Source: Candidatus Iainarchaeum sp. (GTDB lineage Archaea; Iainarchaeota; Iainarchaeia; Iainarchaeales; DTGL01). Taken from it: a stretch of 64,000 nucleotides of DNA. The DNA lies in contig JAOAJX010000002.1 in NCBI GenBank assembly GCA_026413945.1, forward strand, positions 4,618 to 68,617, written 5' to 3'. The translations under genes were made by a program, and so were the position numbers. The notes below the pieces were generated by a model that saw nothing but the letters and a program-made list of their open reading frames with translations, was not told the origin of the DNA and made no database searches. Below are positions 1,144 through 58,460 of this stretch, in pieces (within the stretch, counting starts at the first letter, position 1; the number at the start of each line of letters is the position of its first letter).

Positions 1144-1170
1144 TTATTTTTTCTTTTTCTTTGCTGGCAA
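1144..1170 (-). CDS. candidate micropeptide MPAKKKKK (TTG start; alternative ATG at 1197 gives MEYFEKGGRLPAKKKKK)
   Basis: Minus strand reads AAGGGTGG-AAGA-TTG CCA GCA AAG AAA AAG AAA AAA TAA. TATA-like TTATTAAT at about 1217-1224; U-rich tract downstream (1096-1143). Confidence 0.45.
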   Translation of the reverse strand: MPAKKKKK

Positions 1171-1249
1171 TCTTCCACCCCTTTTCAAAATATTCCATTT
1201 CTATAAAAGTAAAAACTTATTAATAAGCTTTTCTATAAGGATTTTTTTC

Positions 1250-12150: not shown

Positions 12151-12351
12151 CTATTTCAAAGCAAGCCTTATATCCTCAGCAGTTATTGTCTTTCTTTTTG
12201 CATGCTCTGCCAATACTTTTGCCTTTAATGAGATTCTTATGCCTTCTTCTTCAAGTATTTTTGCAAGTTCTACTGCTGCGGAGTTGCTTACTCTAAGACC
12301 ACTTCCTTTTCTAATTATTCTATCAACCGCCGCTACTGGAAGTTCAGTCAT
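12151..12351 (-). CDS. archaeal histone (HMfA/B type)
   Basis: ELPVAAVDRIIRK...RVS...AEHAKRKTITAEDIRLA; SD GGTGA-TATT-ATG. Confidence 0.96.
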   Translation of the reverse strand: MTELPVAAVDRIIRKGSGLRVSNSAAVELAKILEEEGIRISLKAKVLAEHAKRKTITAEDIRLALK

Positions 12352-24535: not shown

Positions 24536-24572
24536 TGCTAAATCGGTAAGTATAATTGCAAGAGGTGATATT

Positions 24573-24614
24573 ATGGCTGGTTGCTGCGGAGCAAAAACCA
24601 AAAAAGGAAAGTAA
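24573..24614 (+). CDS. candidate micropeptide MAGCCGAKTKKGK
   Basis: GAGGTGA-TATT-ATG, with the 12-mer GGTGATATTATG identical to the histone RBS; T-rich tract follows the stop. Confidence 0.6.
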   Translation: MAGCCGAKTKKGK

Positions 24615-35600: not shown

Positions 35601-36221
35601 TGGTATGCCATATTCATACTCTGGCAAAAAGAAGTTTGGATTATACTGGGTTTCATTCACAAATACGGCTGTTCGATCAAAATATATATAGCTAACATCA
35701 TTGCTTTCTTTAACCTTAAATGTTATTCCAGTAGAATATAGACCTGTTACATCTGAGTGTCCTCCAAGACTATAAGAAGACATGTAGTAATAGAAAGCTA
35801 TTTTGTACCTTCCAGATGGAAGCCCATTGGGAATTTTCCAGTTAAAATCTACATGTTGCTGGCTATATGTTTTAAAACTTATTTCGTCTGGAATAAAAAA
35901 TTCATCAACAACGTCTTCACCAAAACCGAAACTACCTCTAAAGTAAGTCAGTACTTGTATTTTTATTTTACCTTCTGACATAGGATGTTCTATTGCACCA
36001 ACGATATCAAATGACCCAAAAATAGTTTCACCAGGCAAATATTCCAATTTATCTATAGTCAAATTTTCAAAGCGAACAGAAAAAGATCTGTGATATTTTT
36101 CACAAGGCACACAGCGACCTTTAACTCTAGCACAAATTGGTTCTTCCTCGGCACTAACAAAGGAATTCAATAAAATCAAGTAAATAAATAATATCAAAAA
36201 TAGCCACACTTTCGAAGCCAT
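32655..36221 (-). CDS. large surface protein, apparent fusion of two exported modules
   Basis: Signal peptide; TM plus basic patch, then internal signal-like MAFLFILLSIFLG at 34385; Cys-rich domain; C-terminal TM + KKR-type sorting-like tail. SD GGTGA-TTTT-ATG. Confidence 0.75.
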   Translation of the reverse strand: MASKVWLFLILFIYLILLNSFVSAEEEPICARVKGRCVPCEKYHRSFSVRFENLTIDKLEYLPGETIFGSFDIVGAIEHPMSEGKIKIQVLTYFRGSFGFGEDVVDEFFIPDEISFKTYSQQHVDFNWKIPNGLPSGRYKIAFYYYMSSYSLGGHSDVTGLYSTGITFKVKESNDVSYIYFDRTAVFVNETQYNPNFFLPEYEYGIPLTIKIPLKNIGKAKDVIVTKRIYLWDDVKYPRLLELNKKGAIPENSPIIAELKAVSGLQKTEEFEIGADSTKDIKYELGLLPPEAYMVIITAENKATQQKSVMPIRVPIHGTKARIAFASIAKFPLAAGESTTIGACFSISTTIRETLSESVYVGDGKEPGEVSINDFNSFSTLGSIEFEFQDESGKSLLHETVKPILIIDEMRAVEVPFKAEKNLSRGKLITKLWDINGRLHDIEETYYDYSKYADVKMKLNINCKFIEDGPKVAAEIELVDDIGSRCKLEKNVNLIVINKKDLKPITTKTIKLSDCVGNTEVILPIVTESYIIRAVLAENNSITAEAEIKSKEIQETPNIKNENITPGIVVKDVGNKGMSMSMIIGISFATFALVALLSLLLLKYLRQKKVIKMAFLFILLSIFLGLMETHRAAEIDGFQLFCPTTPDVADPACWESYVKAYMRISWEPTFTTLDGKVISGNVLYCEGEGGQIKFDMNSSVSGDFMIAGGYTSCPPIAWKKISDYDKISSWDMFYGHGINEYCNANIVQPQLILNGKSYALCNGCQIGVNTLENITCEDCLYSPTGKYNVLGQPLEYKCAKCTVPSGQPQPAGQHNNIPCYTCRVTTPGSQLSTWNIFCKGNVKIYENNSVKQSFDITSAPPSTSFNVPAGASEYKIKATLDVDCLGYSGYFLGFCWNRPHYVKLNSYSRSPGPVGLPPYKNLLPATLSGEVTLNVVDPNTLFNTDKIEISDVTHTRFQTTGGWEKVITKFRVTNTDKYPVKIDSIELKEPKGQLSVIQGKGIILKPGEATDVIIESIVFTIKPRIDIYYSYNGYTISCKKNQGIKSITFDLFPNEVYAIKSLNAKNTKVGEPIEVSVTCTADLNLKISLWPTDGTIKGSKPVLQNIKMKCNKDYVAIGTVQEPGVYYIEAELDIPGYSICKTSDCKQGKYISVVSQPKETAAAELNIYFVLIIAIVIMFITKIKERKS

Positions 36222-48100: not shown

Positions 48101-50800
48101 ATGGACTGGCATTCGATGAGTGCTTCTGATGTCCTAAAAGCCTTAAAAACAAGTTCTTCGGGCTTAACTGAAAGTGAAGTTGAGAGGCGCCTCTGCCAAT
48201 ATGGCAAAAATTTAATTGAGTCAGAGTACAAGATAAATCCAATAAAAATATTCCTCAAACAATTCACAGATTATTTGATTCTTATTCTAATTGCTGCTGC
48301 AGTTGTCTCATTCATAATGAGTTTACTTCCTGGCGGGGAAGGTCACGAGATTGATGCAATTCTAATTGCAATAATATTAATAGCAAATGCAACTATTGGA
48401 TTTTTTCAGGAATATAAAGCCGAAAAGAGCATTCTTGCGTTGAAAAAACTTGCTGCCCCTAATGCAGTAGTTTTACGTGAGGGTTTTGAAAAAATAGTGC
48501 CTGCGGAACTAATTGTACCAGGAGATATAATAGTTCTAGAAGCCGGATCAAAAGTCCCTGCAGACGCAAGGATTATCGAGCATGTAAATCTGCAAGTTGA
48601 CGAATCGATGCTAACCGGTGAAAGCATGCCTGTTTCAAAAGACTTGGAGGCGCTTCCAGAAGAAACTGTTTTGGCTGAGAGAGCAAACATGCTTTACATG
48701 AATACGTTCATAATCAGCGGCAAGGCAAAGGCGGTTGTTGTCGCCATTGGCAAGGAAACAGAAATAGGAAAAATCGCAAAGATGCTTTCAGAAGTGAAGG
48801 AAAGACCAACTCCATTTCAGGTTGAGGTTGATAAACTCGGAAAAGCAATTGGCCTTGGCGTAATTGCAATAATCTCTTTTGTGGCTGTTTTGCAATTTGC
48901 AGTAATAAATGACACTCCATTTGAGATCTTCTTAAGATCAGTTTCTTTAGCAGTGGCTGCAGTCCCGGAAGGTCTGCCAGTCGTTGTAAGTGTTGTGCTC
49001 ACTTTAGGGATAAGAAAAATGGCAAAGAAGAGAGCACTTGCAAGAAAGCTTCCTGTTGCAGAAAGCTTAGGATCTGTGAATGTAATATGTACTGACAAAA
49101 CTGGCACGCTAACAGAGAATAAAATGACTGTTAGGAAAATATATTTCAATGGCCATACATATGATGTTACTGGCACTGGTTACGACGAAAAAGGACATTA
49201 CAGTGGGGATAAAGCTATAGATGAAAATGAATTGAGGCCTTTGCTTCTTTGTGGTGTCCTTTGCAATGATGCAAAGGAGCACGTATTTCAAGATAAAAAA
49301 GAGTATTTTGGGGACCCGACTGAAATAGCCCTATTAATTGCAGCCAAAAAGGGGCATATAGAACCAGCTGTTGAAAATTCAAAAAATACACGCATTTACG
49401 AAGTACCCTTTACTAGTGAAAGGAAAATGATGAGTGTTGTTTGCAAAAGCAATAATGAACTAGTTGTTTATACCAAGGGGGCCCCAGAGATCTTGCTTGA
49501 GCATTGTAGCCATGTTTTTATAAATGGCAAGGAAGTAAAAATGACCACAGAAATAAAAGAAAAAATAATTAACGAGAACAAAGAGATGGCTAAAAATGCA
49601 TTGAGGGTTCTTGCCTTCGCTACTAAAAAAATTAGCGCTTTGGATCTCAACGAAAAAACTATTGAAAAAAATCTTGTTTTTTTGGGTTTGCAAGGTATGA
49701 TAGATCCACCAAGAGCCGGTGTCAAAGAAGCACTTGAGGATTGCAGAAGAGCTGGTATAAAAGTAATAATGGTAACCGGTGACAACCTTGATACTGCAAT
49801 TGCAATAGGAAAAGAGCTTGGCTTTAATGTCAAAAATGCTACAAGCAGCAAAGATCTTGAAAATATGGGTGATGAAGAACTAAAAAGCAAAATTGATTCA
49901 GTAGAGATTTTTGCAAGAGTTACACCAATACAAAAGGTAAGGATTGTGGATGCGCTACACGCTAAAAACTACATTGTAGCAATGACTGGTGATGGTGCAA
50001 ATGATGCTTTAGCTTTAAAAAAAGCTGATGTTGGCATTTCGATGGGCATACGTGGCACAGATGTTGCTAAAGAAGTAAGTGATCTTGTTTTGCTTGATGA
50101 CAATTTTGTCACTATAAGAGATGCTGTAGAAGAGGGTCGTGCCATATTCGACAACATAAAGAAGTTTGTGACTTACATGCTATCAGCAAACTTGGGCGAA
50201 GTACTTGTAGTTTTTTTCTTTACAATTATGCAATTATTCCACAGCTTTGGCGATAATGTCGCGATACTAACAGCAGCACAGCTATTGTGGATTAACATGC
50301 TAACAGACAGTATGCCAGCAATTGCACTCGGTCTAGACCCAGCTGCAAAGAATATAATGGAAAGAAAGCCGAGAAAAGCGGAGGAAGGTGTTATAGACCA
50401 AAAAGTTCTTTTCTCAATAATTAGCATAGGGCTTATTATGTCTGTAATTATACTTTTGACTTTTATGTATGCCTTCTTATATTCAACAGATAAAACAAAT
50501 CGTTTCTTAAGGGCGCAAACAATTGCTTTTACGAGCGTAGTCGTTTTTGAATTGGTGCGTGCAAATATTGTAAGAGCAAATTATAAAATAAACATACTCG
50601 CAAACAAATGGCTTTGGGCTTCTCTGATATTTGCTATGATTTTGCAATTTATTATATTGTACACTCCATTAAATACAGTTTTCAAAATAGTGCCATTGTC
50701 TTTCTACGACTGGCTTCTGATTTTAGTTTCTACTATAATATTTACAGCAATAATGTTTTTAGTCACCAAAGCAGAAAAAATAATTTTTGTTGGTGAGTAA
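48101..50800 (+). CDS. P-type ATPase, P2A (Ca2+-type)
   Basis: TGES, VPEGL, CTDKTGTLT, KGAPE, MVTGD, TGDGAND, INMLTD. Confidence 0.95.
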   Translation: MDWHSMSASDVLKALKTSSSGLTESEVERRLCQYGKNLIESEYKINPIKIFLKQFTDYLILILIAAAVVSFIMSLLPGGEGHEIDAILIAIILIANATIGFFQEYKAEKSILALKKLAAPNAVVLREGFEKIVPAELIVPGDIIVLEAGSKVPADARIIEHVNLQVDESMLTGESMPVSKDLEALPEETVLAERANMLYMNTFIISGKAKAVVVAIGKETEIGKIAKMLSEVKERPTPFQVEVDKLGKAIGLGVIAIISFVAVLQFAVINDTPFEIFLRSVSLAVAAVPEGLPVVVSVVLTLGIRKMAKKRALARKLPVAESLGSVNVICTDKTGTLTENKMTVRKIYFNGHTYDVTGTGYDEKGHYSGDKAIDENELRPLLLCGVLCNDAKEHVFQDKKEYFGDPTEIALLIAAKKGHIEPAVENSKNTRIYEVPFTSERKMMSVVCKSNNELVVYTKGAPEILLEHCSHVFINGKEVKMTTEIKEKIINENKEMAKNALRVLAFATKKISALDLNEKTIEKNLVFLGLQGMIDPPRAGVKEALEDCRRAGIKVIMVTGDNLDTAIAIGKELGFNVKNATSSKDLENMGDEELKSKIDSVEIFARVTPIQKVRIVDALHAKNYIVAMTGDGANDALALKKADVGISMGIRGTDVAKEVSDLVLLDDNFVTIRDAVEEGRAIFDNIKKFVTYMLSANLGEVLVVFFFTIMQLFHSFGDNVAILTAAQLLWINMLTDSMPAIALGLDPAAKNIMERKPRKAEEGVIDQKVLFSIISIGLIMSVIILLTFMYAFLYSTDKTNRFLRAQTIAFTSVVVFELVRANIVRANYKINILANKWLWASLIFAMILQFIILYTPLNTVFKIVPLSFYDWLLILVSTIIFTAIMFLVTKAEKIIFVGE

Positions 50801-51298
50801 ATGGATTTCTTCGAAGTTGTTAATAGAAGGTTTTCTGCAAGAAAATACTTACAAAAAAGCATGGATAAACACTTACTTGATACAATCCTAGAAACCGTAA
50901 CAAAAGCACCAAGTGCAGGAAACCTTAAAGCATATAAAATTCTTGCATTAAATAATAAAGAAATCAAGAGCGAACTTGCTAAAGCTGCATTTAACCAAAA
51001 TTTCATTTTTGAGGCACCTGTAGTTTTAGTTTTTTGCGCATTACCTGAAATAAGTTCGGCAGTATACGGCAAAAGAGGCGCAGAACTTTATAGCATACAA
51101 GACGCAACAATTGCTGCAAGCTATGCGCAGTTAGCTGCAACAGCAGTTGGTTTAGCGACATGTTGGGTTGGTGCGTTTGATGAAGATTTGGTCAAGAAGA
51201 TTCTCGGACTAGTTAATGAAAGGCCTATAGTTTTGATGCCAATTGGATTTGCCGCAGAAAATAAAATAAGCAAGAAAAATTATATAAAAAATAAATAA
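50801..51298 (+). CDS. nitroreductase family protein
   Basis: RRFSARKY, APSAGN, QDATIAA, GLATCWVGAF. Confidence 0.9.
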   Translation: MDFFEVVNRRFSARKYLQKSMDKHLLDTILETVTKAPSAGNLKAYKILALNNKEIKSELAKAAFNQNFIFEAPVVLVFCALPEISSAVYGKRGAELYSIQDATIAASYAQLAATAVGLATCWVGAFDEDLVKKILGLVNERPIVLMPIGFAAENKISKKNYIKNK

Positions 51299-51318
51299 AA
51301 GTTTAAGTAAAATCTAAA

Positions 51319-51351
51319 TTACTTCTTCTTTGCCTTCTTCTTTGCCGCCAC
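51319..51351 (-). CDS. candidate micropeptide MAAKKKAKKK
   Basis: GGGGGTGA-AGTG-GTG GCG GCA AAG AAG AAG GCA AAG AAG AAG TAA; BRE/TATA AAAACAA-TTAAATA at 51401-51414; T-rich tract downstream. Confidence 0.6.
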   Translation of the reverse strand: MAAKKKAKKK

Positions 51352-51445
51352 CACTTCACCCCCTTGCTAATTTAGATACACCAATAGATGTAAGAACAAC
51401 TATTTAATTGTTTTGGTAAGAAAACAAGTTTTGGGAGAAAAAAGT

Positions 51446-51465
51446 ATATGAAAAATTTTTCATAT
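51446..51465. repeat. perfect 20-bp palindrome ATATGAAAAATTTTTCATAT
   Basis: Directly visible, between the ABC operon 3' end and the micro-ORF promoter. Confidence 0.7.
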
Positions 51466-51475
51466 GTAAATTTTT

Positions 51476-52621
51476 TCATTCTGCCCTTAGCGCTTCAATT
51501 GGGTCAAACTTACTTGCCTTCCAAGCTGGGTAAAGCCCTGCAAACAAGCCTATAAGTACAGCAAAAAGAAAGGACTCAATAGCCAATGCTGGCGATATAT
51601 ACAATCTTACAGGTATTTTTCCATATAAATAATCAGCAATCAATACGCCAAACATAAGCCCTAGCACACCACCAAACACTCCAATTATGGTAGACTCATA
51701 GAGGATCATCTTTATTATTGTACCATTGGTCCACCCAGATGCTTTCAGAATGCCAATTTCCTTGTAGCGCTCCATAACGCTCATAAGCATTGTGTTGAGT
51801 ATGCCAACTGCAGCCACTAATGAGGCTATTGATGCAACAGCCATCACAAGTAGCCTGATGTTTCCTAAGACACCAGATAATGACTCAGTAAACTGGCTTG
51901 AACTCACTACACGATAATTGTCACCAAGCTTAAATTTTATAAGTTTTGCCATTTTTTCTGAATTTTCTGGATTTTCGAGTTCTACGCTTATCTGCGTAAC
52001 CTTATTCTTTGGAAAACTTATTAGGTCGCGCAATTCATCAATGTCCATCAGAATACCATAGTTGAATAGCTTTGAACCAGTTCTGTAAACACCAACGATA
52101 ACAAATTGCTTATCATTTATCTTTATTTTGTTTCCAACAAATTTTCGGTAATCATCAGATATGCCTTCCCCTATAACAACACTTCCTTTTTCACCCGGTT
52201 GTAGATTCCTGCCCTTAAGAATTTCGCCGGTTACTCCGCCGACTGTCTGACCGCTTTTTTCAAAAACCGTACCAAAAAGCCTTATGGTGCCGGTCATACT
52301 CATCGAACCCAGTGGTGTTTCCTTGCCATCTATGCTTCTAGTAAGCGCAGTTATAACCGGTGTTGCCTTTTTTATACCAGGCATTCTTCTCAATTCGTAA
52401 ACTATTTTTTCGTCAGTTTGCGCATATATTGGGCCATAAGCACTTCTTTCAAAAACAATTATGCCCTGAACCTGAGAAATTGTATTTTTTATCTCAAGAA
52501 AGAGACCATCTGCCAATGCAGTCATTAAGATTATCGCAAGTACTCCAACTGCTATCATTCCAACTGAAAGAAATGTTCGCAACTTTTTTCGTTGCAGGTT
52601 CATCAAGGCTGTCTTAAACAC
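51476..52621 (-). CDS. ABC transporter permease (MacB/FtsX/SalY type)
   Basis: RKKLRTFLS, GILNTMLMSVMERYKEIGILKASGW, FDPIEALR. Confidence 0.9.
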   Translation of the reverse strand: MFKTALMNLQRKKLRTFLSVGMIAVGVLAIILMTALADGLFLEIKNTISQVQGIIVFERSAYGPIYAQTDEKIVYELRRMPGIKKATPVITALTRSIDGKETPLGSMSMTGTIRLFGTVFEKSGQTVGGVTGEILKGRNLQPGEKGSVVIGEGISDDYRKFVGNKIKINDKQFVIVGVYRTGSKLFNYGILMDIDELRDLISFPKNKVTQISVELENPENSEKMAKLIKFKLGDNYRVVSSSQFTESLSGVLGNIRLLVMAVASIASLVAAVGILNTMLMSVMERYKEIGILKASGWTNGTIIKMILYESTIIGVFGGVLGLMFGVLIADYLYGKIPVRLYISPALAIESFLFAVLIGLFAGLYPAWKASKFDPIEALRAE

Positions 52622-52622
52622 C

Positions 52623-53315
52623 TTATCTTTCCTCCATTTTATCAATAAGGCCATCTTTTATGTAAAGAATTCTATTGCCATATTTTGTAAGGGACAAGTC
52701 ATGTGTTACTATTATGAAAGTTTTATTTTTTTCCTTGTTCATCTTTTGCAATGTATCCATTATTTGCATAGTTGTTTTGCTGTCAAGGTTTCCTGTTGGT
52801 TCATCAGCAAGTACAATTTTAGGATCGTTTATTAAGGCCCTTGCAATTGCTACTCTTTGTGATTCACCACCGCTAAGCTCTGTGGGTTTGTGGAACATTC
52901 TATGTTCAACACCCACTATTTTGAGCAACTCCTTGGCTCTCTTAATCTTTTCGATATCATCGATTTTAGTTGGCTCGAGAGGTAGCATTACATTTTCCAA
53001 GGCATTAAGAGTCGGAATCAAGTGAAAAGATTGGAATACAAAGCCAATGAATTTCCTCCTAAGCATAGCTAAGCCCCAATCGTCAAGTGTTTGCAAATCC
53101 TTTCCGTTTATAAAAACTTTTCCTGAGCTCGGTTTATCGAGAGCACCCATCAAATGCAACATAGTGCTTTTTCCGGAGCCACTAGGGCCTATTATCACAA
53201 TGAAGTCGCCTTCGTATACATCGAGGGTGACGCCGCAGAGTGCCTTTACTTTTACCTTTCCCATGGTGTATTCTTTACAGACATTTTTCATTTCAATAAC
53301 CTTTTTTTTAGGCAC
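52623..53315 (-). CDS. ABC transporter ATP-binding protein (LolD/MacB type)
   Basis: GPSGSGKST, LSGGESQRV, LADEPTGNLD, VTHD. Confidence 0.95.
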   Translation of the reverse strand: MPKKKVIEMKNVCKEYTMGKVKVKALCGVTLDVYEGDFIVIIGPSGSGKSTMLHLMGALDKPSSGKVFINGKDLQTLDDWGLAMLRRKFIGFVFQSFHLIPTLNALENVMLPLEPTKIDDIEKIKRAKELLKIVGVEHRMFHKPTELSGGESQRVAIARALINDPKIVLADEPTGNLDSKTTMQIMDTLQKMNKEKNKTFIIVTHDLSLTKYGNRILYIKDGLIDKMEER

Positions 53316-58226: not shown

Positions 58227-58460
58227 TTAATCGTGTTCCTCGAAGGCTTTCGCTTGCTCTGGATCATTCTTTTGAATCCATTCCATCAGCATTGCAACAT
58301 GCTCTTTTTCTTCATCCCTGTTGTGCTCCAATATTCTCTTTAGTTTTGTATCTTTTGTGCTAACAATTCTTGTCTCATACCAATTTATTGCCTCAAGCTC
58401 TTCAATCAAGCTTTGCCTTGCCATCTTTAAATCTGTATTTTCAACTTCCTTGGAATACAT
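58227..58460 (-). CDS. short ferritin-like protein (encapsulated-ferritin family)
   Basis: SLIEELEAINWY, ILEHNRDEEKEHVAML.EW. Confidence 0.88.
   Translation of the reverse strand: MYSKEVENTDLKMARQSLIEELEAINWYETRIVSTKDTKLKRILEHNRDEEKEHVAMLMEWIQKNDPEQAKAFEEHD

Follow-up and report, generated by a model that had tools for sequence, protein, structure and literature searches.

A ten-codon, lysine-rich frame conserved among Iainarchaeal genomes as a candidate polycationic micro-gene

Can an open reading frame (ORF) of ten codons that specifies little other than lysine be a gene in its own right? The question is raised by a stretch of 64,000 nucleotides from Candidatus Iainarchaeum sp. (contig JAOAJX010000002.1, positions 4,618 to 68,617), hereafter the window, in which a gap of 177 nt (51299-51475) between two convergent genes holds a short frame on the minus strand at 51351..51319. 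This frame, here called micro-ORF A, reads GTG GCG GCA AAG AAG AAG GCA AAG AAG AAG TAA and would encode (M)AAKKKAKKK, i.e., ten codons plus a stop, with lysine at six of the nine sense codons after the start. An earlier note, written from the sequence alone, had proposed that micro-ORF A and two further unannotated frames form a family of stand-alone polycationic micropeptides hidden below the length cut-offs of gene callers. We analyzed the 64-kb window together with loci from public collections, and the comparative evidence supports the presence of conserved polycationic micropeptide genes below these cut-offs. Micro-ORF A is almost certainly a functional conserved element and is quite probably translated, while the chances are about even that the function resides in the peptide itself, as a nucleic-acid-binding polycation. 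Taken as a whole, the balance tips slightly in favor of micro-ORF A being a real coding micro-gene, bearing its own promoter and led by a Shine-Dalgarno (SD) sequence, that belongs to a lineage-specific polybasic family and provides a trans-acting polycation.

The layout of the locus agreed with the description in the earlier note with regard to coordinates, gap, promoter, SD sequence and U-rich 3' tract. On the minus strand, a promoter block TTACCAAAACAATTAAATAGTTGTTC (51420..51395) contains a B recognition element and TATA box (BRE/TATA), AAAACAATTAAATA, at 51414..51401, the TATA end lying approximately 50 nt before the start of micro-ORF A, and is followed by the 8-nt SD sequence GGGGGTGA (51363..51356) placed 4 nt 5' of the start codon. 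Downstream of the stop codon, a U-rich tail (51318..51283) carries runs of T4, T4 and T6, the last of which (51291..51286) overlaps the final codons of the nitroreductase gene, and this tail is a likely archaeal terminator of the micro-ORF A transcript. All elements of an archaeal SD-led transcription unit, namely BRE/TATA, SD, start, open frame, stop and oligo-T, are thereby found in order. In one respect the earlier description had to be corrected, as the initiator is not an ATG but a GTG (51351); the second GTG was identified as the start from those orthologues that have ATG at the aligned position. The geometry of GGTGA, 4 nt and start codon was confirmed to be common to micro-ORF A, the gene of the 66-aa histone (12351..12151, ggtgatattATG) and the genes starting at 36221 and 61209. 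Furthermore, all four intergenic GGGGTG sites of the window sit 4-5 nt 5' of a start codon, and two of these belong to micro-ORF A and its companion micro-ORF B. One of the four intergenic GGGGGTGA-type SDs precedes a 77-aa ORF (MYSKEVENTDLKMARQSLIEELEAINWYETRIV..., 58227-58460, minus strand), a small gene that falls below the 90-aa cut-off of the window gene map. A Logan contig from the source run, a hot-spring metagenome, served as an independent check and matched the micro-ORF A stretch with no differences.

The gap is flanked on one side by a nitroreductase gene (165 aa, 50801-51298, plus strand), which is convergent with micro-ORF A, and on the other by a permease gene (392 aa, 51476-52654, minus strand) with confirmed FtsX and MacB_PCD domains, the last gene of a permease-ATPase-permease operon. 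Directly 3' of the permease stop codon lies a palindrome, ATATGAAAAA/TTTTTCATAT, followed by T6 (51465..51438, minus strand), the palindrome itself being a perfect 10+10 match (51465..51446). This is a likely terminator of the ABC-transporter operon and would thus set the operon apart from the promoter of micro-ORF A. The palindrome with its T6 is 29/33 identical to relative L001 and 24/33 to L240 and is visible in L241, L242, L248 and L250, a degree of conservation that exceeds the need of a simple oligo-T terminator.

The gene order P-type ATPase, nitroreductase, convergent micro-ORF, permease, ATPase, permease was retained in nine frame-carrying Iainarchaeal relatives as well as in one genome without the frame (L243), and the closest nitroreductases are just 59-69% identical to that of the window. 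At the position of micro-ORF A, L001 and L002 carry an 11-aa frame with a GTG start (MAAKKKAKKKK), and all remaining orthologues start with ATG: L003 encodes MAKKKKAKKK (10 aa), L240 encodes MAKKKKK (7 aa), and in L241, L242, L250 and L248 the frames reach 38 aa (MAKKKRKAAKKRTKKSTKKKSTKKKTKKKTKKKKKKRK), 34 aa (a polybasic K/R/T frame with a hairpin and T-run 3' of it), 43 aa (MATKKKKKTTKKKKVTKRK...) and 66 aa (MATKRKKKSHKTTKKKKPTKKKK(TTKKK)n...KKKKRR), respectively. The frames of L241, L250 and L248 were gene-called in their source records. In every orthologue the start codon, GTG or ATG, is found 4-8 nt after a GGTGA-type SD preceded by a TATA box, and the stop codon directly follows the basic run; T-rich tails follow the stop in those frame-carrying relatives whose 3' flank was read. 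The SD sequence GGGGGTGA is invariant in the window, L001, L002 and L003, and the promoter block at 51395..51420 is identical at 25/26 positions to L001 and at 22/26 to L003. Compared with L001, SD and start matched at 18/20 and the frame at 23/28 positions, as opposed to 10/26 and 17/45 (38%) for the spacers of the gap and 42-49% for the 4-fold degenerate third positions of the flanking genes, used as a neutral proxy. Hence, the neutral background is saturated, while promoter, SD/start and frame remain at 82-96% identity to the closest relative.

The differences that did occur are those expected of purifying selection on a reading frame, with synonymous third positions, in-frame indels and retained start and stop codons. 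Among the short frames of the closest relatives we found synonymous third-position changes (GCG/GCA, AAG/AAA), the GTG/ATG swap at the start, one whole-codon exchange of alanine to lysine, and indels of 3n. When the orthologues of micro-ORFs A and B were taken together, there were at least 11 single-base differences, all of them synonymous third-position changes (AAA/AAG, GCA/GCG, CCA/CCG), none at position 1 or 2 of aligned sense codons, and every indel was a multiple of three. In the long forms, frame 0 alone is free of acidic residues, and a stop codon interrupts frame 2 in 4/4 and frame 1 in L250. The bias in lysine codons (AAG in 6/6 of micro-ORF A compared to 34% in window genes) was inconsistent across orthologues and was left unused as an argument.

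The two companion frames named in the earlier note both exist, yet they share the layout of micro-ORF A to different extents. Micro-ORF B (1170..1144, minus strand) reads TTG CCA GCA AAG AAA AAG AAA AAA TAA, specifying (M)PAKKKKK, and is preceded by the SD sequence GGGGTGG at 1181..1175; it resembles micro-ORF A but starts with TTG, and we take it to be a further copy of this type of gene. It is located between a convergent gene for a beta-CASP/RMMBL-type hydrolase and a divergent gene for an HhH-GPD glycosylase. A pattern scan with one genome per species recovered syntenic orthologues in L037 and L078 (MPAKKKKKK), the same two genomes that carry micro-ORF A orthologues, and in L080 (MAKKKTKKKKK), a further Iainarchaeum, and both the TTG start and the SD are kept in the four genomes. 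A perfectly palindromic TATA sequence, CTTATTAATAAG (1216-1227), is placed approximately 47 nt 5' of micro-ORF B and, on the other strand, approximately 25 nt 5' of the HhH-GPD start codon (ATG, 1250); it is retained in L037 and L078 but absent from L080. Since this candidate bidirectional promoter may serve both directions, its conservation alone is no proof of a promoter for micro-ORF B. The HhH-GPD gene itself is apparently leaderless.

Micro-ORF C (24573..24614, plus strand; MAGCCGAKTKKGK, 13 codons) follows the amidohydrolase gene by 38 nt and has the SD sequence GAGGTGA at 24562-24568. Its orthologue in L244 encodes an identical peptide with a GTG start and four synonymous changes, whereas L245 encodes MAGCCGSKTKKGK and L246 and L247 encode MAGGCG[N/D]KTKKGK, giving the 13-aa consensus M-A-G-[CG]-C-G-x-K-T-K-K-G-K. 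Across the five sequences, 11/12 third positions vary as compared to 3/24 first and second positions (2/1/11 by codon position 1/2/3), which we read as an unambiguous coding signature for a gene of 13 codons, indicating that micro-genes of such size are real in this lineage. Judged by its fixed sequence and its cysteine residues, micro-ORF C is nevertheless a different type of peptide. Moreover, it probably does not stand alone but forms the final cistron of the operon 5' of it, as its sole TATA-like box lies too near the ATG. Thus, of the proposed family of stand-alone polycationic micropeptides, the conservation of all three frames, including their synteny in relatives, was borne out, while the stand-alone character probably does not extend to C and the A locus encodes 34-66 aa elsewhere.

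The enrichment over chance anticipated in the earlier note was likewise observed. The strict pattern proposed there (GG[AT]G[AG]-N4-start, no more than 15 codons and a lysine share of 40% or higher) had two matches in approximately 5 kb of intergenic window DNA against 0.01 expected, and the observed count was reached in 0/300 dinucleotide shuffles. Likewise, a longer pattern common to A and B gave two matches in the window and none in 100 whole-window shuffles. However, these figures are flattering, as the patterns were written after the matches had been seen and shuffling destroys A-runs, and for this reason conservation in relatives rather than the shuffles was taken as decisive. When 153 kb of Iainarchaeal DNA were scanned under relaxed conditions for an SD, a start and a basic frame without acidic residues, the A and B orthologues were returned together with five other short frames.

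These data bear directly on whether micro-ORF A is a gene at all, or instead a chance ORF, a non-coding RNA or the antisense image of the T-rich terminator of a convergent gene. The latter was our initial reading and was abandoned once the orthologues had been read. In a genome of 37% guanine and cytosine (GC), the A-rich antisense of T-rich 3' regions readily yields lysine-rich frames, and each of the three micro-ORFs is located opposite the 3' flanking sequence of a convergent gene. Yet the plus-strand image of micro-ORF A (CTTCTTCTTTGCC...) has no T-run longer than three and would therefore be a poor terminator, and a terminator mirror is unable to explain the conserved TATA, SD and start, the frames of 100-200 nt in L241, L242, L248 and L250, or the 2/1/11 distribution of variable positions in micro-ORF C. 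Concerning a non-coding RNA, a tRNA scan of the 51299-51475 gap found none, Rfam 15 gave no gathering-score match at the three micro-ORF loci (best local E-value 0.54, to an unrelated model), and no stable fold was seen. The predicted micro-ORF A transcript of approximately 96 nt is in fact less structured than its shuffles (z = +1.98; 198/200 shuffles fold at least as well), which agrees with an open message rather than a structured RNA. The possibility that micro-ORF A is not a gene is therefore largely refuted by the comparison of sequences, and we regard it as extremely unlikely.

The long orthologues raise a different possibility, namely that the ten codons are the decaying, nonfunctional rest of a gene of 34-66 aa, with an apparent conservation that derives from promoter and terminator sequences retained for the neighboring genes. 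The distribution of lengths, with the long form in more distant relatives and 7-11 codons in the clade of the window and in L240, would agree with such decay, as would the loss of the whole locus in one relative. In contrast, the short form has kept promoter, SD, start and stop despite saturated neutral sites and a nitroreductase identity of just 60-69%, and its promoter is useless to the neighbors because both neighboring genes end there. Moreover, four genomes retain a second short locus, micro-ORF B, and all of them share its TTG start. A mere remnant thus appears very unlikely. Rather, micro-ORF A is, as far as its orthologues indicate, the short end of a length-plastic family of polybasic small proteins and not a fixed decapeptide, since the same syntenic gene makes K/R/T proteins of 34-66 aa, of the type MATKRKKK(TTKKK)n, in the more distant relatives (L241, L242, L248 and L250). 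The predicted products of the locus have 7, 10-11, 34, 38, 43 or 66 residues consisting of K, R, T and A only, plus rare S, H, P or V. Such free length combined with a constant composition suggests selection on a translated run of positive charge and not on a fold, and as just charge and composition are kept, an electrostatic mode of action is likely.

On the favored reading of micro-ORF A as a translated polycationic micro-gene, the BRE/TATA promoter would drive a monocistronic message of approximately 90-110 nt with a short unstructured leader, on which the 8-nt SD would bring the 30S subunit to the GTG start. Translation of the ten codons would yield (M)AAKKKAKKK with a net charge of approximately +6, and transcription would stop in the U-tracts 3' of the frame. 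In its most likely role, the polycation would then act in trans by neutralizing and binding nucleic acid, with rRNA and ribosomes or DNA as possible targets, much as basic ribosomal micro-proteins, histone and H1 tails or polyamines do. What the sequences show directly is the anatomy of the unit, its synteny, and the conservation of its blocks, frame and start; that it is transcribed and translated, and that its peptide is stable and binds nucleic acid, is inferred.

Several points weigh against this translated polycation. Tracts of (AAG)n expand and contract by triplets through slippage, and by construction all of their G's share one phase; in such a low-complexity tract the third-position and in-frame arguments consequently carry less weight for A and B than they do for C. 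L243 keeps the syntenic block without gap or micro-ORF, its nitroreductase and permease genes being 4 nt apart (L243 1267-1272), so that the gene must be dispensable or have moved in that genome. A run search for the window returned one DNA run and no RNA run, and the hot-spring metatranscriptome X12 was silent on the relative L105 and on window positions 50800-52700, which is uninformative rather than negative. In addition, a peptide of 7-10 residues may be degraded quickly, and a length range of 7-66 residues would argue against a defined ribosomal pocket. Finally, the long forms had no match in Pfam, NCBIfam, PDB, a word-indexed protein search or a profile search of 1.8 billion representatives, although composition filters probably contribute to the failed family searches of these 34-66-aa forms.

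Instead of the peptide, the act of translating the lysine run or the small RNA could be what is selected, with micro-ORF A serving, for example, as a sensor of Lys-tRNA or ribosome state, or as a strongly transcribed convergent unit that affects the 3' ends of its neighbors by antisense overlap or transcriptional collision, and the peptide being a by-product. Micro-ORFs A, B and C all lie at convergent 3' ends, the U-tract of A reaches into the nitroreductase gene, peptide length is free to vary, and a run of one amino acid within a tiny SD-led frame is the characteristic sign of an attenuator leader. A bacterial look-alike described below further offers an RNA of approximately 116 nt that consists of SD, frame and a highly conserved hairpin. 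Against such a role, neither A nor B has a same-strand gene 3' of it, and the A transcript is without alternative hairpins and less structured than its shuffles. Furthermore, the distant orthologues of 34-66 aa far exceed the length of leader peptides, the neighbors are wholly different between A, B and C and between lineages, and L243 retains both neighboring genes without the element. Overall, we consider a regulatory micro-ORF unlikely.

The neighboring operon suggests yet another explanation, in which the product of micro-ORF A is exported by the MacB-type transporter as an antimicrobial, host-directed or signaling cationic peptide. Transporters of the MacB/BceAB type handle peptides, cationic ones included, and the FtsX and MacB_PCD domains of the neighboring permease would be in line with this. 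The permease-ATPase-permease operon ends 125 nt upstream on the same strand, an adjacency that is kept in the nine frame-carrying relatives; since synteny extends over all of the approximately ten genes of the block, however, this adjacency carries little weight. Operon and micro-ORF A are separated by the conserved hairpin and T6 terminator and by a separate promoter, the A peptide has no leader or signal sequence, micro-ORFs B and C have no transporter nearby, and L243 retains the transporter without the peptide gene. An exported peptide is accordingly a highly improbable function of micro-ORF A.

Frames resembling A and B were also encountered outside the Iainarchaeia when a search pattern of this type was run on genome and metagenome collections. 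Most matches were N-termini of ordinary proteins, but the pattern also gave groups of stand-alone frames of 10-13 codons that were conserved within groups; since the pattern demanded the motif, the number of look-alikes is uninformative on their frequency. One group comprises Rokubacteria/Methylomirabilota-type contigs with a GC content of 67-69% (L012, L067, L145, L156, L230 and L182), which carry a unit in the order TTGACA-N17-TAGCAT, GGGGTGAG, ATG or GTG, MAKKKAKKKKK and a hairpin. Here, 6/7 of the -35 bases (TTGACA), the whole TAGCAT box, GGGGTGAG and the downstream hairpin are invariant, and the frame shows only AAG/AAA changes and one in-frame insertion of 6 nt. In the metatranscriptome run X2, the L145 locus was represented by a contig consisting of positions 967-1082 bounded by adapter sequence on both sides at a word depth of 64.5, i.e., a discrete RNA of approximately 116 nt spanning SD, frame and hairpin, while the flanks were without coverage. 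In a related strain (DNA-like runs), 11 substitutions and two indels were found in 853-966 and none in 967-1083, with changes resuming after 1083; this conserved block coincides exactly with the RNA. The data show that the bacterial look-alike is expressed as a small RNA, which does not imply its translation. Rfam had no match on the bacterial look-alike loci.

In a second group, made up of four low-GC bacterial contigs (L020, L151, L190 and L212), 11-12-codon frames of the type MAKKKAKKKK[KR] (for L212, MAKKKKAKKKKK) are flanked by phosphoglucomutase-like and FtsK-like genes. The frame is followed by a hairpin, whose differences among the contigs are compensatory, and by a T-run, and this unit looks like a monocistronic micro-mRNA. 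Single look-alikes were seen in genomes of Nanoarchaeota, another uncultured archaeon, Methanosarcinales and Omnitrophota. The frame of the Methanosarcinales contig (L018 2541-2576, MAKKKAKKARR) is convergent with a nitroreductase gene, and that of the Nanoarchaeota contig (L038, the same as L124; minus strand, start 1938; MAKKKKAKKKKR) is followed 481 nt downstream by a P-type ATPase gene, both being types of neighbor that also occur in the window. A functional link to these neighbors was considered and judged too thin, the arrangement possibly being a coincidence. The bacterial groups may be related to the archaeal genes or convergent, as 30 nucleotides cannot decide between the two. It is a tentative and rather doubtful proposal that stand-alone oligolysine micro-genes (7-13 codons, M-A-K3-A-K4-5, with a perfect SD and their own promoter and terminator) form an unrecognized class in both domains, carried by Iainarchaeia, other DPANN, Rokubacteria/Methylomirabilota and several low-GC bacteria. 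Their products might then be genetically encoded, polyamine-like counter-ions or a new ribosome-associated peptide, invisible to gene callers and tryptic proteomics.

If translated, micro-ORF A would rank with the shortest conserved genes known to possess a promoter of their own, for which mccA (7 codons) is the usual benchmark, and to our knowledge the first known case of a genome encoding plain oligolysine. It is a testable example of what the length cut-offs of gene callers leave out. Trypsin-based proteomics destroys K-rich peptides, and products of this type would be missed; the computed masses are 999.692 Da for AAKKKAKKK, 1130.732 Da for MAAKKKAKKK, 826.575 Da for PAKKKKK and 1150.595 Da for AGCCGAKTKKGK. 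More broadly, the genome-reduced and partly thermophilic archaea of the DPANN may draw counter-ions for nucleic acids, or accessories of ribosomes and chromatin, from micro-genes, and the parallel frames in unrelated bacteria, one of which matches an abundant discrete metatranscriptome RNA, suggest a general phenomenon.

Our literature searches returned no description of oligolysine micro-genes, and micro-ORF A can therefore be placed only next to systems that share some of its traits. The leaders of the his, trp and leu attenuators are likewise tiny SD-led frames dominated by the codons of one amino acid, and a single-amino-acid run is present in A as well; however, A is neither positioned as a 5' leader of a same-strand downstream gene nor equipped with competing, alternative hairpins, and its orthologues are full small proteins. 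H1-tail and protamine-like DNA binders share with A the K/A/T/P runs, low complexity, free length and probable charge neutralization, but A is an order of magnitude shorter and lacks a globular or repeat architecture. The histone of this genome (12351..12151) consists of just the 66-aa fold and has no tails. In uncultured Gammaproteobacteria, the same search pattern retrieved 47-aa MPAKKKAKRPAAKK... frames.

Closer in function may be the tiny basic ribosomal proteins, i.e., eL41 (also known as eS32) of archaea and eukaryotes and bS22 and bL37 of bacteria, which are very small, often unannotated and contain more than 55-60% K/R. The bS22 of Borrelia was unannotated, has a GUG start and 61% K/R, and fills the same pocket in bacteria as eL41/eS32 (10.1101/2023.04.16.537070). 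The site in question is the h27/h44/h45 pocket of the small subunit. The long orthologues of A (34-43 aa) are within the size range of these proteins, which are, however, helices of 24-37 residues with a conserved sequence, whereas the A frame has 10 residues (7-66 in orthologues) of K, A and T only. As the 10-aa peptide is too short for a family search, the long orthologues were used instead: the 34- and 38-aa forms had no Pfam match, including Ribosomal_L41, at E<=1, the 38-aa form had no match to eL41 chains or others in PDB at E<=10, and the long forms had no NCBIfam match, including bS22 and bL37, at E<=10. Membership in these families is hence unsupported, while by analogy they would be the nearest functional counterparts of A.

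With respect to gene size, the closest parallel is mccA, which encodes the microcin C precursor in 7 codons with its own ribosome-binding site and a product that is used (PMC4231749, PMC6495379). In contrast to A, mccA needs its partners MccB-E in one operon; no MccB-type partner gene was found around the 51299-51475 gap, where the neighbors are ABC-transporter genes, the nitroreductase and a P-type ATPase, and the A peptide ends in lysine. As an example of scale, mccA nevertheless provides a precedent for a frame of 7-10 codons being a true gene.

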